Shown one piece after another: positions 50,891-61,793 of a stretch of DNA of 64,000 nucleotides. Origin of the DNA: Candidatus Aenigmatarchaeota archaeon. GTDB taxonomy: Archaea; Aenigmatarchaeota; Aenigmatarchaeia; CG10238-14; SCSR01. A program made the translations under genes and the position numbers. Location: assembly GCA_038999725.1 (NCBI GenBank), contig JAWBWS010000004.1:10296-74295 (forward strand), given 5' to 3'. The notes under the pieces were generated by a model. That model was not told where the DNA came from, did not search any database, and saw nothing but the letters and a program-made list of their open reading frames with translations. Position 1 is the stretch's first letter; each line of letters starts with the position of its first letter.

Positions 50891-50996
50891 GCTGGTGTAG
50901 ATTAGTGGTTAAATCGCGGCGCTCATAGCATCTGTGAGCTTTGATAGAAAGATGAAAGAAACGCCGAGATCGCGGGTTCAAATCCCGCCACCAGCA
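50891..50996 (+). tRNA. tRNA-Met(CAT), elongator type, with a 33-nt intron at 37/38 (50928-50960)
   Basis: Acceptor GCTGGTG/CACCAGC; anticodon stem CGGCG/CGCCG; T arm GCGGG-TTCAAAT-CCCGC; G1 start and no GGG/CCC stem argue against initiator. Confidence 0.88.
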
Positions 50997-54058: not shown

Positions 54059-54990
54059 ATTTTCACTTTAAAAAACAAAAACACTTAAATATACTTATTT
54101 CCATTAATTTATTTGACTCATGAGCTTGGCGTTTAGGCTTTGATAACGTCAAGAGACAAAAGATGAAATGTCCTATTCTGGCTCATGAGAAATTGTCCTG
54201 AAGTGAAAGAGCTTCAGGTAGGTTGATTGGTGAAACCTAGAGGTAGGGCCCGCCAATTCTGGTTGATCCCGCCAGAGGCCACTGCTATCCGGCTTCTACT
54301 AAGCCATGCGAGTCGAGAGGGGAAAGCCCTCGGCGCACTGCTCCGTAATATGCAGTCAACCTACCCTTAGCTGGGGGATAATCTCGGGAAACTGAGGCTA
54401 ATACCCCATAGGTGCTTGGTACTGGAAGGTCCTAGCACCCAAAGCTTCGGCGGCTAAGGATGGGACTGCAGCCTATCAGCTTGTTGTGGAGGTAAAGGCT
54501 CCACAAGGCGATAACGGGTACGGGCTATGGAAGTAGGAGCCCGGAGATGGACTCTGAGACATGAGTCCAGGTCTTACGAGACGCAGCAGGCGAGAAACCT
54601 TTTCAATTCGCTCACGCGAGAAAAGGGAAGCCGGAGTGCCCTTGCTCTGCAAGGGCTTTTGCGGTCTGAAAACGGGACCGCGAATAAGGAGTGGGTAAGA
54701 CGGGTGCCAGCCGCCGCGGTAATACCCGCACTCCAAGTGGTGGCCACGATTATTGGGCCTAAAGCGTCCGTAGCCGGTTTGGTAAGTCCTCAGTGAAATC
54801 CTCTAGCAAACTAGAGGGCTTGCTGGGGATACTGCCAGACTTGAGACTGGGAGGGGGCAGGGGTACTCCCAGGGTAGGGGTGAAATCCTGTAATCCTGGG
54901 GGGACCACCTGTGGCGAAGGCGCCTGCCTGGAACAGGTCTGACGGTGAGGGACGAAAGCTAGGGGAGCGATCGGGATTAGATACCCCGGT

Positions 54991-55071
54991 ACACGAGATT
55001 GGGTATCTTCTGATTCAAGATGAAGAAAAATCCCAAAATTCCAAGCTAGGATTTCCTAACTCGTGCGGGAA
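54991..55071 (+). other. 16S intron 1 (81 nt, after E. coli ~801)
   Basis: Interrupts CCCGGT|AGTCC; BHB helix CCCG/CGGG, stem CACGAG/CTCGTG. Confidence 0.92.
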
Positions 55072-55252
55072 AGTCCTAGCCGTAAACGATGCCCTCTTGG
55101 TGTTGCAAGCTTCTCGGGAGCTTGCAGTGCCGGAGCGTAGGTGTTAAGAGGGCCGCCTGGGGAGTACGCCCGCAAGGGTGAAACTTAAGGGAATTGGCGG
55201 GGGAGCACACAAGGGGTGGGCGTTGCGGTTCAATTGGATTCAACGCCGGGAA

Positions 55253-55862
55253 AGGATAACATCAGTTAAGCTTAAATATCAGATATAGTAAAATTTACTA
55301 GTGGCGATATTATGGGTGTTTACGATGAAGTTTTGAATAATAAAACACTGGCTGCAAAAATATTACTTCCGTTGATAGAGTTTGAGTTTGGTTTAATGGG
55401 AGAAGATTCTCCAACATTAGTTCAAACACCCTCCAACCAAAAACAACTAGAAGTCATATTTAGTATATGCAAAAAATACGAGTGGACCACTTCCAAAAAT
55501 CTCAGAAAAAAGGGCGATAACTTGTATTTCAGACTTAAAAGGAGTGGTTTCAAAGAAATTTATCAGTTGGCCGGACCATTTGCAGATAAGGCAAAAGATG
55601 CTTGGGCCAAATTACTTATAGAACGAATTGGAAAAATTGGAGGATATAGAAAAAAAGAAAAACAAACACAAGAAAAAATATTGGGTATGTTAAATATGAA
55701 AAAGAACAAATGGTGGAAAATTGAAGAAATTTGTTTAAATTTAAGAATACTTCCAAGTACAATTAGAGAAAGTTTAAGAGATTTACAAAAAAGAAGATTA
55801 GTGAAAAGCAAAAAAATCGGAAAGGCTACTTATTGGAAAATTATCTGATGTTATCCCCCGAA
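55253..55862 (+). mobile_element. 16S intron 2 (610 nt, after E. coli ~978), ORF-containing
   Basis: Interrupts CGGGAA|TCTTACC; BHB helix CGGG/CCCG, 12-bp stem GGATAACATCAG/CTGATGTTATCC. Confidence 0.92.
55312..55848 (+). CDS. Intron-encoded protein: divergent single-motif LAGLIDADG-like domain plus C-terminal wHTH
   Basis: ILLPLIEFEFGL helix followed by a LAGLIDADG-like strand/helix pattern; IEEICLNLRILPSTIRESLRDLQKRRLV; TATA-like CTTAAATA at 55271. Confidence 0.6.
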   Translation: MGVYDEVLNNKTLAAKILLPLIEFEFGLMGEDSPTLVQTPSNQKQLEVIFSICKKYEWTTSKNLRKKGDNLYFRLKRSGFKEIYQLAGPFADKAKDAWAKLLIERIGKIGGYRKKEKQTQEKILGMLNMKKNKWWKIEEICLNLRILPSTIRESLRDLQKRRLVKSKKIGKATYWKII

Positions 55863-56081
55863 TCTTACCAGGGCCGACGGCAGGATGAAGGTCAGTCTGA
55901 AGGGCTTACCAGACAAGCCGAGAGGTGGTGCATGGCCATCGTCAGCTCGTACCGTGAGGCGTGCGCTTAAGTGCGTTAACGAGCGAGACCCACATCCCAT
56001 GTTGCTACTGCTTTCTCCGGAAAGCAGGCACTCATGGGAGACCGCTGGCGATAAGCCAGAGGAAGGAGTGGGCGACGGTAG

Positions 56082-56168
56082 ACAGGTAAAAGGCTCATAA
56101 CCGGTTCATGTGAAAAAAGATGAACATGAACAGCGCCCAGAGCCTTACATGTCTTTTACCTGACCGAA
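56082..56168 (+). ncRNA. 16S intron 3 (87 nt, after E. coli ~1197) containing an H/ACA guide RNA candidate
   Basis: BHB helix CGGT/ACCG; internal hairpin with pocket, K-loop and ACA at 56147. Confidence 0.8.
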
Positions 56169-56449
56169 GTCCGTATGCCCCGAATGCCCTGGGCCACACG
56201 CGACGCACAATGCGCGCCACAAAGGGATGCAACCCCGAAAGGGGAAGCGAATCCCCTAAAAGCGCGCCCAGTTCGGATCGAGGGCTGTAACTCGTCCTCG
56301 TGAAGCTGGAATCCCTAGTAAGCGAACGTCATCATCGTTCGCTGAATACGTCCCTGCTCCTTGCACACACTGCCCGTCAAGCCAATCGAGCGGAACTTCC
56401 TCGAGGCTTGTGATGAGCAAGTCGAGTGGAAGTTCTGTGAGAGGGGCTA

Positions 56450-56561
56450 ATCTCGGGAGTCCGAAAAATTAAAGCTAAGATGAAAAAATTGGCTTGACCC
56501 TGAAAATTGATGATGAGTCGGAGGTGAATTGATTTGGCTAGATGGACTCCCTAGAGCCTAA
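56450..56561 (+). ncRNA. 16S intron 4 (112 nt, between A1492 and A1493) containing a box C/D guide RNA candidate
   Basis: BHB helix GGGC/GCCT; boxes AAGATGA, CTGA, ATGATGA, TTGA; two antisense elements matching this 16S. Confidence 0.82.
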
Positions 56562-56749
56562 AGTCGCCACAAGGTAGCCGTACGGGAACGTGCGGCTGGA
56601 TCACCTCCTTAAGATCCATTGCAACCCTACCTCAGGCACTAGAAAACAACCTACCTGAGAAAAAATTTTTAGTGTTTCAAAAATAGCGTAACCTATAGAG
56701 TTTTACCACTATGGATTTTATTAGTCTATTACTTTTAGAGGATAGTTTT

Positions 56750-57262
56750 TTAATAAAACGTCAATTCCTTTGGAGTTTTATAAAGTCTTGCTATCAATGC
56801 TCCACGTATATGGATTAATACACAATTTGAATCAAGGCTATATCCATCACTATCTTCTCTATCTTCTCGCGGGGCTTTGAAATTACAATATAAAAACAAA
56901 GACTCTTTATGTTTTTCATAAAACTCACTGTTCTTCATAGACATACGTTTAGCTATATCTTCATAATATTTTTCTGGAGCATGAACGGGTAACTCGAGGA
57001 TTTCTACATCATTTGTGGAATTTTTTGCAGTATAGATTTTTATAGAACCATCTTCTTTATATTTGATAACCACTGAACCATATTTACCTTCAGCAGGATT
57101 AAAGCGTGAAACGAGTAAACTACCAATGTCCATCGGTATTAAATTCCCTGCTGTTTCATCAAGAATGTATAACACAATGTCCTTTCTACCGGTTCTGTAA
57201 GTTTTACCCTTTTCTAAATTAAACACCCTTTCTTCTTCCCCTATAAACCATCTCAAGCTCAT
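56750..57262 (-). CDS. Hypothetical protein, possible FHA-like domain
   Basis: TGRKD...LVSR...NSTN motifs in FHA order. Confidence 0.5.
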   Translation of the reverse strand: MSLRWFIGEEERVFNLEKGKTYRTGRKDIVLYILDETAGNLIPMDIGSLLVSRFNPAEGKYGSVVIKYKEDGSIKIYTAKNSTNDVEILELPVHAPEKYYEDIAKRMSMKNSEFYEKHKESLFLYCNFKAPREDREDSDGYSLDSNCVLIHIRGALIARLYKTPKELTFY

Positions 57263-57356
57263 GTTAATTACTTATCAGTAGTAAATAATTTTTTTTCCGG
57301 TAGTGAAAGATATATTTTAAAGTATATAATTCCGAAAAGAGAGCTTATTTAAAGAA

Positions 57357-59375
57357 TTAAGGAAACAGGTTATATGTGAGTATTAATGAAGAAAAAACTG
57401 AAGCGGTTAAAGACATAACTGTTATCATTGTATTTAAACTTGGTCCTGCAGTATCTTTAAAAGGATCCCCAACCGTGTCACCAACTACGGCAGCCTTATG
57501 GGCTTCTGAGCCTTTACCACCAAATGCCCCTTCTTCTATTAGCTTCTTTGCATTATCCCATGTTCCTCCTGAATTTGCCATGAATAACGCAAAAATTATT
57601 CCCGTCAATATACTAGCAGCAAGGAAGCCTGCCAAAGCTTCTTTACCTAAAAGAAAACCGACAAGCAAAGGAGCAATTATTGCTAGCAAGCATGGAAACA
57701 TGAGCTCCTTCAAGGCACCTTTTGTAGCTATATCAACACATTTAGCATAGTCTGGTTTTGCTTTTCCTTCTATTAATCCAGGTATTTCCCTGAATTGCCT
57801 TCTTATTTCTTCAATCATCCTGAAGGCATTTCTCCCCACTGCTAAAATCAACAAAGCCGAAATCACTGGTGGGATGATGCCACCAATAAAAATCCCAACT
57901 ATCACTTTAGGCTCCATTAAGTTTATGGAGAATAGGCCACTTAAAGGATCTTTCCTTATCTCAACAACTTCAGCATAAGCTCCGAGTAAAGCTAAAACAG
58001 TTAGAGCAGCTGCACCAATTGCGAAACCTTTTGTTATGGCTTTTGTTGTGTTGCCTAGAGCATCAAGCCTATCAGTAATTTTTAAAGCTTTTTTTCCAAC
58101 ACCAGCTTGTTCTCCGATTCCCTTAGCATTATCAACTATAGGACCATAAGCGTCAGAAGAGATTATCATCCCTACTATTGAAAGCATGCCAACGGCTGAA
58201 ATTGCTATCCCATAGAAGTTGTTAACATCAAAAGCTCCTGCAAGATGCCAGGCAGCAAGCATTGCTATACAAATTCCTATTATCGATGGTACAATACTCA
58301 ATATACCATAAGAAAAGCCAGATAGGATGTTTGTGGCCGCTCCTGTTTTTGCTGCTTCTGCCGTTTTTTTTACTGGAGCTTTATCAATTGAAGTGTAATA
58401 GTCTGTGGTTATTCCTATGACCACACCTGCAATCAAACCTGCTAGAGTTGGTAAAAACACACCATAGCCTTGAACTCCAAGGTTAAGAAGCTGAATGATT
58501 AAAAAAGTTAAAATTGCAAAAATAAAGCAAGTTGAAAAAGTTCCGAGATTTAAAGCCATGTTGGGATTTTTCCTTTTCGTAAAATTGACAAAAATTACGC
58601 CAAGTATGGAAGCAAAAATTCCCACAGCTGCTATAAGCAAAGGTAAGAAAACAAAGGTTGGAGAAATGACCTTCCCTATTATCATAGCAGCTATTATACT
58701 TGCTATGTAAGAGTCTATTAAATCAGCACCCATACCGGCAACATCACCAACATTATCACCAACATTATCAGCAATAACAGCAGGATTTCTTGGATCATCT
58801 TCAGGAATTCCCATCTCAACTTTTCCAACCAAATCAGCACCTATGTCTGCTGTTTTCGTGTAGATGCCACCTCCAGCTTTTGCAAATAAAGCCAGAGCAC
58901 TTGCACCAAAGCTGAAGCCCAAAACAATCTCAGGGTCTTGGTAAATGTGGAATAAAATGGCAATTCCAATCAAGGCTATACCAACTATCATCAAGCCCAT
59001 AATAGCTCCACCACAAAAACCGATTGAAAAAGCTTGAGCTAAGCTTTTCTTTGCAGCGTTGGTTACCCTAACATTTGTTTTGACCGCGGCAAGCATCCCA
59101 AAATAGCTTGCTACTGCTGTTGAGATGGAACCGAGCAAGTAAGCTAGAGCTATATGTGGGTTTAAAAAGAGGAAAATTAGAAAAGTCATGATGGCGACAA
59201 AAATTGCTAGGTATAAGTTTTGTCTTTTCAAGTAAGCTTTTGCCCCAATTTTTATCGCTTCAGAAATTTCTTCCATTTTCCTTGTTCCAGGGCTTTGTTT
59301 GCTCACGTGAAGATATAAGTAGAAAGCTGTGAAGATTGAAAGCAAACCAGCAATTATTGGAATTATTTCAAACAT
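57357..59375 (-). CDS. hppA: Membrane pyrophosphatase, predicted K+-independent H+-translocating
   Basis: [35 protein letters not shown] (Lys at the K+-dependence determinant). Confidence 0.95.
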
Positions 59376-59442
59376 CAAGTCACTAATTAAAAATTATTAG
59401 AGGAGGATAATTTAAAGGTTATAAGGCTCAAATACTAATAGT

Positions 59443-59514
59443 GGGCCGGTAGATCAATGGTAGATCGCCTCGCTTGCAACGAGGAGGCTCCGGGTTCGAA
59501 TCCCGGCCGGTCCA
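59443..59514 (+). tRNA. tRNA-Ala(TGC), intronless
   Basis: GGGCCGG/CCGGTCC with G3:U70; CCTCG-CTTGCAA-CGAGG. Confidence 0.96.
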
Positions 59515-59589
59515 CATGAAGAAAAAGAGAGCGACAATATAGTAGATTAAACAAGGAGATTGTTTATGTATGAATCAGAGGAGGGGCAA

Positions 59590-60483
59590 ATGGCTAATGA
59601 GATTAAACGACGCGCTCAAAAAACAAATAATGAGAAGGAGGAATTTATGGACCCGGAAAAATGTGAGAACATTAATTCTCTTAGGGAGAATGCGTGAATG
59701 GGGAAGTTTTTATGCTGTCAAGATTGTCCTCGGCATCCCCTTCGAGGTAATCCTGTATTTGCTGAAGGTTGCTCACTACATCAAACAGAATCTCCTCTAA
59801 TCCTTTTTGTTTCTCAAGACCCCGCAAGTCCCAAAAGGAGTGGTATTATTGGTTGCTCGGCAGATGGAAGAGTTTGTCCATGGTGCCACACGGATTTTAG
59901 TGCAAATAATTTTCGTGAAAAACTTTTCCCTTTAATAAAAAAGAGACTTCCTGGGATAGAGTGGATGGGTGTTATCGGATTTATTGTATCAATGCTGTTT
60001 TACATGGCCCGAGATAATATGCCACCTCCAACTAGAGCTGTCTGCTAGACTTATATTCTAAAAGCATATGTTCGTTTACTTAAGCCTAAGATTGTAATGG
60101 GGCTTGGAATAAAAGCAAGATACTCCCTAGCGCTTGCTTTTGGTATTCAAAACTTTGAAAAAGCATCTTATCCAGTAATTCGTGAAGGTATAGCGTTTTG
60201 GTGGACTTACCATCAAGCTCAAAGGAGCTTTCTCAAAAAACATTATGAAATTGAGACAAGATTTAAAATAATTGCGGAGTTTTTAAAAGACCAACTAGAG
60301 GGGTGTGAAAGGGTAAAGAGGGAATACAAACTCAGAAAATTGGAATTTGAGCCAGAAATTCTAATTGTGAGAGAATATTACGACTTAAGATTGCCGAAAA
60401 TTTGGTACTTCATAAATCGATTTTTCTTCTTCTTTGTCATAAATATGGGGAAACTTCATTTACATCTTTCTCCAAAGCCCTAG
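59590..60483 (+). pseudogene. Uracil-DNA glycosylase superfamily pseudogene
   Basis: CQDCP, ILFVSQDP, IYCINAVLHGP (other frame), PPT..VC*, LLKPKIVMGLG and WTYH, split by frameshifts and stops. Confidence 0.7.
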
Positions 60484-60579
60484 CAATTCTCTTTGCCAAA
60501 TTATTCGGTTTTCTCTCTTGAGCTTCTCTATAATCAGTTGATTATCCCTCTTATTGATTCTGACGTCTCTCCTGTTTTG

Positions 60580-61252
60580 AAAGTTTTTTTATTTGAGAAT
60601 TGTTTCTATCTCATCAATTTTTTTAATTCGGAAATTTGGCTTACATTCCCTACGCCATGCCAATTTAAGTAGTCCATCAAACTCAACTTTCACGGTTGTT
60701 ATACTCTCACATAATTTATTTCATTAATCTGCGAAGGTTTATCGTTTATGAATATTATTTCTTCCGGGAAGCCGTGTATTTTTTCATAATCAATTTTATA
60801 CCTTCTAATCGATCCTTTACATCTTCGCCAGTAATAAAAATATCATCAAAATAATCAAGAAATCCATTTTTCTTGATTCTATATCTTTTCATGCTTGGAA
60901 TTCCATCATTTCCTGAGATTATTATTAAAATTAGTCCCTTCTTTCTTAACGACTCTAGAATACTTTTTGAGTTAATACTATAGATTGTTGTATCCTCAAG
61001 AAAATCTTAAGCATCTCATCTAATCTTTCCTCGGTTACGGATATCCCAAATTCTCCAATCATAATTTCCTAGCGCGTCTTGTTCGTCTTCATAGGCCAAC
61101 GCCTTTTGAATAAACTTGTCCTTCACATCATTTTTCAACCCAAGATGATGAGCAATGAAGTCATACAGGGAAGGTAAACAAGCGTAACTATCCACTAAAA
61201 CACCATCAAAATCAAAAATACAAATTCTATATTTATTTTTCTTAAGACTCAT
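60580..61252 (-). pseudogene. HAD hydrolase pseudogene
   Basis: FDFDGVLVDS in the first frame; LESLRKKGLILIIISGND...YFDDIFITGED...IIFINDKP in a downstream frame without a start. Confidence 0.75.
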
Positions 61253-61508
61253 TTTTACACCCTTTATTTACCCTTAAATGAAAATACACTTTTATCTGGT
61301 TGTAAGAAAACAAGGGATTAACAAACCTCCTATAATAAGTTGCGAAAGAGATGCTATGCCTAGAGTCATTATAAAGAAAGACGTGAGCATCAAACCGAAA
61401 TCTAATAAATCTAATAATAGCATAAATATCCTTTATTTATTGATAGTTTAAAAGATAGTTTAAAATATTCTTCTGTTTTTCTTTTGACTAACTTAATAAT
61501 TCGAAATC

Positions 61509-61516
61509 TTTATAAA
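61509..61516 (+). promoter_or_regulatory. TATA box candidate for an independent 23S transcript
   Basis: TTTATAAA after purine-rich CGAAA, about 25 nt before the structured leader. Confidence 0.55.
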
Positions 61517-61693
61517 TACAAAATACAACTTATTTATTTGCCGGTGTCTGTATGTTTGCTTAGCTTAAGCATCGGCCTTCTTTATTTAGCGATGAGCTTG
61601 TTTTTCTTCTGATAAAAGATGAAGACGTGGACACCTTGCGAGCAATTCAACAGAATGCAACTCCTTATTAAAGAATAAGGGGTGAAGAGTGGA

Positions 61694-61754
61694 GGTTGAT
61701 GATAACATTTATTCGCCTGAAAAAAGATGAAGAGCGAACTGTCTATTTGAAACC
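61694..61754 (+). ncRNA. Box C/D sRNA candidate in the 23S leader
   Basis: GGTT/AACC terminal stem; TGATGA...CTGA...AGATGA...TTGA. Confidence 0.65.
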
Positions 61755-61793
61755 ATAAGATGACACTACCACAGGATCAAGGAGGTCACTAAG

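Follow-up and report, generated by a model that had tools for sequence, protein, structure and literature searches.

The 64,000-nucleotide stretch of DNA analysed here (the window) contains a 16S rRNA gene whose 3′ part is interrupted by a short intron, and nested within this intron are the elements of a small guide RNA. The window belongs to an Aenigmatarchaeota genome with an assembly of 730 kb, split over 9 contigs, and a completeness of 93%. The 16S gene is 2354 bases long, compared with the 1478 positions of the model for this RNA, so several insertions lie inside it. One of them is a stretch of 152 bases in the 3′ strand of helix 44 that the Rfam model left unaligned. The coordinates of the gene, of the intron found in this strand, and of the predicted box C/D cassette with its two targets are compiled in Table 1.

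Table 1. Coordinates of the host gene, the intron, the predicted cassette and its targets in the window
Feature	Coordinates	Strand	Evidence
16S rRNA gene, host of the intron	54256..56609	+	Rfam SSU_rRNA_archaea, 1201.8 bits
Predicted target 1: helix 44 5′ strand (1405-1415), A1408 = 56379	56376..56386	+	Sequence, co-variation
BHB 5′ half: central-helix strand 56444-47 and 3-base bulge 56448-50; predicted cut after 56449	56444..56450	+	RNAfold, RNAalifold, BHB scan
112-base bulge-helix-bulge (BHB) intron between A1492 and A1493	56450..56561	+	Folding, BHB scan, relatives
Inner helix 5′ arm; pairs with 56544-56555, one C.U mismatch	56451..56462	+	RNAfold
Closing stem; six pairs, one G.U	56473-78 with 56534-39	+	Sequence
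Box C region; earlier register AAGATGA 56477-83, alternative 56480-86 (ATGA + AAA)	56477..56486	+	Sequence, relatives
D′ guide ATTGGCTTGAC, 11/11 reverse complement of 56376-86	56488..56498	+	Sequence, co-variation, shuffles
Box D′ CTGA	56500..56503	+	Sequence
Box C′ ATGATGA	56510..56516	+	Sequence
D guide GGAGGTGA, 8/8 complementary to 56601-08	56520..56527	+	Sequence
Box D TTGA, non-canonical; C′-D spacer 12 bases	56529..56532	+	Sequence
Inner helix 3′ arm	56544..56555	+	RNAfold, RNAalifold
BHB 3′ half: central-helix strand 56556-59 and bulge 56560-62; predicted cut after 56561	56556..56562	+	RNAfold, RNAalifold, BHB scan
Predicted target 2: anti-Shine-Dalgarno 3′ end, C1535 = 56604	56601..56608	+	Sequence

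The same 16S gene holds further insertions. Two short ones (about 54998-55072 and about 56083-56170) each form a stable hairpin, with z-scores of -2.2 and -3.9, and each contains a D′-like (C/G)TGA with AGATGAA a few bases on, an arrangement that resembles a K-loop. A search of these other insertions against Rfam in E-value mode returned no archaeal C/D match, and no guide was identified in them. A large insertion (about 55250-55848) carries an open reading frame of 178 residues (55312-55848), for which Pfam gave nothing over the cut-off and no homing-endonuclease family, only weak C-terminal matches to winged-helix families. In the conserved stretch just 5′ of helix 44, the gene has a T at 56371, where most relatives have C; by our own alignment this is position 1400, and the T is common to L002, L003, L004, L006, L013 and L015. 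A spacer of 5.2 kb (56610-61792) that includes tRNA-Ala(UGC) (59443-59514) separates the 16S gene from the 23S gene, and the latter is interrupted by the contig end at 64000. Elsewhere in the window, a tRNA at 50891-50996 (Rfam, 62.2 bits), missed by ARAGORN in default mode, has an insertion of about 33 bases in its anticodon loop with GTGA and AGATGAA motifs. This insertion is reminiscent of the C/D-like tRNA-Met intron of Nanoarchaeum equitans; the candidate identities of the tRNA are Met or, by ARAGORN, Ser.

Folding of positions 56430-56580 with RNAfold and the RNAalifold consensus of 10 orthologous introns gave the same BHB motif, composed of a four-pair central helix and two three-base bulges; in the RNAfold structure the outer helix is broken by a small internal loop. 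RNAalifold detected compensatory changes at seven pairs, six of which belong to the inner helix. The splicing endonuclease EndA cuts after the second base of a bulge, a rule taken from the pair geometry of tRNA anticodon introns, and the intron bounds were set by placing both cuts in this way. Joining the exons without 56450-56561 yields exactly the sequence of the intron-less relatives L012, L013, L014 and L020. An alternative register with the central helix at 56445-48 and 56555-58 was rejected, as its product keeps two extra adenines. Applied to 43 16S-hosted introns that bear the cassette, a strict BHB scan recovered the intron-less sequence exactly in 38, namely 10/10 at A1492/A1493, 11/11 at 1499/1500 (site B) and 17/22 in helix 45 (site C); the five that it missed (L009, L011, L065, L077 and L084) have a mismatch in the central helix. 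The junction between A1492 and A1493 proposed in the initial annotation is thus borne out by the fold and by a product identical to intron-less relatives. The fold energy of the whole intron is ordinary (z -1.10; 30 of 200 shuffles fold as well). Both splicing enzymes, EndA (94.1 bits) and RtcB (548.5 bits), are encoded in the genome. Judged by folding and comparison, the stretch is a genuine BHB intron of the EndA type that interrupts helix 44 in its 3′ strand, and splicing itself is predicted.

Hot-spring sequencing runs were also surveyed; the fraction of sampled words present reached 0.42 at best in the DNA runs and 0.14-0.16 in the RNA runs, and in the mapped runs (X1, X13, X16 and X17) coverage fell over conserved exon parts only. 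Read joints such as 56378 to 56561 were rejected as evidence of splicing, as they came from the divergent helix 44 of other organisms and were present in DNA and RNA alike. One DNA contig from run X1 joins 56462 to 56547 at a depth of 73.9. It may come from a relative with an intron at the same 16S site that lacks the cassette.

The boxes, guides and closing stem of the nested RNA were all found where they had first been annotated. The fifth base upstream of box D′ (56495) pairs with A1408 and the fifth base upstream of box D (56524) pairs with C1535, in keeping with the two positions put forward earlier as targets of 2′-O-methylation. Relatives back this geometry, and methylation at both sites is predicted. 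Both target words are unique within the available part of the rRNA operon, and the loop between boxes D′ and C′ measures six bases. The consensus boxes are RUGAUGA for C and CUGA for D, and guide spacers in archaeal box C/D sRNAs typically measure about 12 bases. The order C, D′, C′, D of the box C/D RNA layout was sustained by the relatives, whereas the register of box C turned out to be ambiguous and box D to be non-canonical. We favour the register 56480-86, in which AA would pair with the UU of box D, because all that box C retains among relatives in the window's family is A-T-G-A with A/T-rich bases behind it. The spacer from box C to box D′ is 13 bases in this register and 16 bases in the register 56477-83. 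The G-A pairs of the C and D boxes are kept in the cassette, and the AA/UU change at the two boxes could preserve stem II of the predicted K-turn. Furthermore, the genome encodes the sRNP proteins fibrillarin (279.1 bits), Nop5 (208.7 bits) and L7Ae (105.1 bits).

Several of the archaeal C/D families in Rfam match 56473-56535 with their boxes in the order C, D′, C′, D, all below threshold. At gathering thresholds no C/D family was found in the intron; the best match, to snoPyro_CD, has a score of 20.4 bits (E 0.08), where the cut-off is 45. The Rfam C/D models are genus-specific, so such a score says little about membership of the class. Of 1000 dinucleotide-preserving shuffles of the intron, 33 produced an antisense match of at least 11 bases to some other part of the 16S, and 1 produced two antisense stretches of at least 8 bases that each end one base before a YTGA box.

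A search of 40 relatives with positions 56300-56609 found the region in 30, and a sequence-only covariance model was built from 22 copies (A1 and R1). This model finds a single copy in the window genome (59.1 bits; next best 12.8 bits) and a match to the cassette at E ≤1e-4 in 77 of the 117 genomes of the order. Each genome has one copy except G005 and G049, which are bins with 4% and 6% contamination. The 79 copies in total are not all independent, since some are identical between bins (L004 and L053; L055 and L057). They reside in four kinds of host intron: 10 at the window's site between A1492 and A1493, 11 between 1499 and 1500 of the 16S, 23 in helix 45 (most between 1513 and 1514, L045 after 1520), and 35 in an intron of tRNA-Ser(UGA). 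L092, counted under helix 45, and L094, counted under tRNA-Ser, are both truncated by contig ends and were assigned by eye. The identity of the tRNA was established by ARAGORN in intron mode together with inspection of the anticodon loop, some labels of Thr and Ile being mis-parsed instances of the same serine tRNA. In default mode ARAGORN reported no tRNA in L021-L024; intron mode finds them and over-calls genome-wide. In L011 (G021) and L025 (G039), the 3′ end of the 16S has two introns, a short one without cargo at 1499/1500 and a cassette-bearing one in helix 45.

The kind of host varies even within genera (g1, g6, g11, g28 and g32). The presence of the same cassette in four kinds of host intron indicates that its sequence is no by-product of the local rRNA, and its location in a tRNA-Ser intron in 35/79 copies indicates that linkage to the 16S is not needed for function. 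Within the order, each of the 44 copies hosted by rRNA falls in the interval from 1492 to 1521, about 30 rRNA bases, and adjoins the two targets or sits between them; none of the 44 occupies any other 16S or 23S position. We take this confinement to argue that the location is not arbitrary.

The window genome's own tRNA-Ser(UGA), which lies outside the window (G000:C3:101001-101098), contains a mini-intron of only 12 bases, at the same place as the cassette in 35 relatives. It looks like an emptied former host of the cassette. In other orders of the class, the model gave weaker matches of 18-30 bits covering the A1408 half only; these orders keep that half together with a different second guide. 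Twelve of these loci were inspected, and in nine (L215-L219 and L221-L224) the cassette follows a serine-type CTTGAG anticodon loop. ARAGORN called tRNA-Ser(UGA) in three of the nine, and the rest were assigned by eye. The remaining loci comprise an intron in helix 45 in G175, an intron at 1492/1493 in G190, and L220, which has no motif match. The tRNA-Ser intron is therefore a widespread host and probably the older one.

Conservation was read in the 74 of 79 copies that could be parsed. The D′ guide ends in GGCTTGAC in 63 of them and in GGTTTGAC in 8, and box D′ is CTGA in 71. A single base separates this guide from box D′ in 74/74 copies, which always places A1408 at the +5 position. Box C′ is ATGATGA in 43 copies and a close variant elsewhere. 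The second guide is GGAGGTGA, alone or after A, in 64 of 74 copies and in most lies one base from box D; the spacer between boxes C′ and D has 12 bases in 55 and 13 bases in 13. Box D itself occurs in six forms: TTGA (48), CCGA (13), TTAA (7), CTGA (3), GTGA (2) and TCGA (1). Across the copies, boxes and guides are conserved while the flanks diverge. In L010 (G010), L016 (G016), L085 (G092), L089 and L091, an extra hairpin of 24-36 bases enlarges the D′-C′ loop, with boxes and guides intact. A helix that RNAalifold placed inside the cassette (columns 70-76 with 91-97) was not relied on, as it has almost no co-variation.

Guide and target could both be read in 48 genomes. At target position 1410 and its guide partner, the pair is G:C in 39 genomes, A:U in 5 and G:U in 4, and the mismatch A:C occurs in none. 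At position 1414, T:A (three genomes) and G:C (one genome) lengthen the duplex. The contiguous duplex between guide and target comprises 8-12 pairs in 45/48 genomes and only 6 pairs in the other three. The D guide is only 8 bases long and its target is invariant, so that no co-variation can be shown for this half.

A pattern scan of species genomes located the sR13 locus of N. equitans, a canonical box C/D gene that stands alone and shares both guides. Although absent from the training set, sR13 scores 33.1 bits (E 5e-11) against the covariance model built from Aenigmatarchaeota only, and on this score the cassette is a homolog of sR13. Both are dual-guide RNAs of about 60 bases (Dennis et al. 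2015, PMC4644070; Seistrup et al. 2017, PMC5389701); their D′ guides are aimed at 16S 1405-1415 and place A1408 at +5, their D guides are aimed at the anti-Shine-Dalgarno tail (1531-1540), and both host lineages lack KsgA/Dim1. The two differ in that sR13 is a stand-alone gene with canonical ATGATGT and CTGA boxes, whereas the cassette is the cargo of an intron and has TTGA as box D. The gap between guide and box D is two bases in sR13 and one in the cassette, and this difference shifts the position from A1534 in N. equitans to the predicted C1535 here. The report on N. equitans describes stoichiometric Am1408 and Am1409 together with Am1534 in the anti-Shine-Dalgarno sequence, assigns these to sR13, and notes that the organism lacks RsmA/Dim1 (PMC5389701). 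It also proposes that the stepwise release of helices 44 and 45 from sR13 substitutes for the RsmA/Dim1 checkpoint (PMC5389701). The notion in the initial annotation that the guides could act as chaperones is therefore one already in print for sR13.

KsgA/Dim1 is described as a factor of ribosome biogenesis that is almost universal, N. equitans being the known exception (PMC7897474, PMC8997704). The window genome gave two partial matches to the RrnaAD profile (29.0 and 27.8 bits), both restricted to the SAM-binding part; these were rejected as KsgA, being a GCD14-like and a generic methyltransferase. A full-length KsgA/Dim1 was found in one of the 117 genomes of the order, G049 (180.3 bits), a bin with 6% contamination, and the next best match reached 37.7 bits. 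In a phylum sample of 151 genomes, 63 were positive for RrnaAD at E ≤1e-20, comprising 0/52 in the window's order and 63/99 outside it; the controls of this search were positive in 14 of 14 genomes. A link between the guide RNA and the loss of KsgA/Dim1 is plausible. There are exceptions to this association: G175, which belongs to a different order, combines a dual guide hosted in the 16S (48.8 bits) with a KsgA match (151.5 bits), and several other families are without both the dual guide and KsgA.

The housing of the cassette can be compared with several known arrangements. Box C/D RNAs are known in introns of tRNA-Trp and of the N. equitans tRNA-Met (PMC7994747, PMC3491384). The tRNA-Trp guides are likewise cargo of a BHB intron, freed by EndA and ligase; they target their own host RNA, a tRNA, whereas the predicted targets here are in the 16S and the host is the 16S or, in relatives, tRNA-Ser. 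The BHB introns of Thermoproteales 16S genes (Jay and Inskeep 2015, PMC4496867) also interrupt conserved 16S regions, and some are short and free of open reading frames; that report lists 13 loci (374 to 1391), none at 1492, 1499, 1513 or 1520, and the word sRNA is absent from its main text. Eukaryotic intron-encoded snoRNAs similarly sit in introns of genes of the translation apparatus, where they couple the supply of guides to ribosome production, but they lie outside the target rRNA, unlike the cassette. Searches of the openly accessible literature turned up no box C/D RNA described within an rRNA intron, and the portions consulted of PMC7994747, PMC4644070, PMC6009581 and PMC4496867 mention none. 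The guide family and its targets have been published before, as has the chaperone idea; what appears to be new is the location of the guide in introns of the rRNA that it targets.

We consider it very probable that the locus is a BHB intron in helix 44 carrying a dual-guide box C/D sRNA as cargo, the counterpart of sR13, with a function that is predicted. The intron would be transcribed within the pre-16S rRNA, so that one guide is made for each target. L7Ae, Nop5 and fibrillarin would assemble on the C/D and C′/D′ motifs. The D′ guide would then pair with 1405-1415 to direct 2′-O-methylation of A1408, and the D guide with the anti-Shine-Dalgarno tail, either leading to methylation at C1535 or merely holding the tail. 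EndA would cut both bulges, and RtcB would ligate the exons, restoring A1492-A1493, and probably circularise the intron. While the intron is in place, the central helix of the BHB would occupy 1487-1490, the partners of the guide-target strand in the mature rRNA; as read from the sequence, the top of helix 44 could then not close and 1405-1415 would stay accessible. The anatomy of the locus, its conservation, the guide-target co-variation, the enzyme genes and the homology to an RNA with measured methylation at its target sites are observed, whereas expression, splicing, circularisation and methylation in the window organism are inferred.

The guide might work in trans only, with the intron as a mere vehicle that offers promoter-less one-to-one co-transcription and a stable circular product, and with a position in helix 44/45 that is meaningless. 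The 35 of 79 copies in tRNA-Ser(UGA) introns can act on the 16S only in trans, so that trans action must suffice in these relatives; the tRNA-Ser host is also found in other orders of the class, sR13 of N. equitans is a stand-alone gene, and the tRNA-Trp intron guide is reported to act in trans (PMC7994747). Set against this are the confinement of 44/44 rRNA-hosted copies to 1492-1521, near or between both targets, and the BHB at the window site, which is predicted to sequester the pairing partner of the target strand. We regard trans-only action as a serious contender that falls somewhat short of an even chance.

Two further readings concern the cassette itself. Its D′ half alone could be a methylation guide, with GGAGGTGA and the aberrant box D serving as an anti-Shine-Dalgarno chaperone or as part of a K-turn scaffold. 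This would accommodate a box D spelled TTGA, CCGA or TTAA in 68/74 copies, a D duplex of just 8 base pairs, and the exchange of the second guide in other orders that keep the A1408 half. It fits poorly with the preservation of the second guide in 64/74 copies, with its spacing of one base from box D in most copies and the 12-base C′-D spacer in 55/74, and with the N. equitans homolog, which has a canonical CTGA as box D and for which Am1534 was measured; on balance we think this restriction to one half unlikely. Far less probable still, to the point of being nearly negligible, is that the box-like motifs and the complementarities arose by chance in an A/T-rich remnant of a mobile rRNA intron. 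An 11-base antisense match alone does arise in 33/1000 shuffles and the Rfam matches are sub-threshold, but boxes and guides are kept in 79 copies and four kinds of host with divergent flanks, guide and target co-vary, the cassette is single-copy in the genomes, and sR13 is a homolog. Chance is, on the comparative data, already contradicted.

Beyond the dual-guide sRNA as intron cargo, we put forward a more far-reaching scenario as a speculation, which we judge to be rather doubtful at present. The intron may be a built-in assembly checkpoint, in which the BHB and the guide duplexes would keep both helix 44 and the anti-Shine-Dalgarno tail from closing before the sRNP has methylated A1408 and C1535, and only splicing by EndA and RtcB would then permit the decoding site to fold. 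This RNA timer would replace the control of late 30S assembly by the lost KsgA/Dim1, and the cassette would have hopped repeatedly among the tRNA-Ser intron and four 16S sites, perhaps via the circle.

Introns at 1492, 1499 and 1513 disrupt the sites of common universal 16S reverse primers. Within the literature searched, the cassette would be the first box C/D RNA encoded in an rRNA intron, housed in its own target at the decoding adenines. Such a guide would link intron splicing, RNA-guided modification and 30S maturation, which are usually studied apart. Because one cassette has moved repeatedly between five intron sites, it provides a natural data set on the movement of archaeal introns and guide RNAs. 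Moreover, a whole order of Aenigmatarchaeota without KsgA/Dim1, yet with a single-copy guide of the sR13 type, offers another lineage, besides that of N. equitans, for testing the published proposal of an sRNA in place of the KsgA checkpoint.
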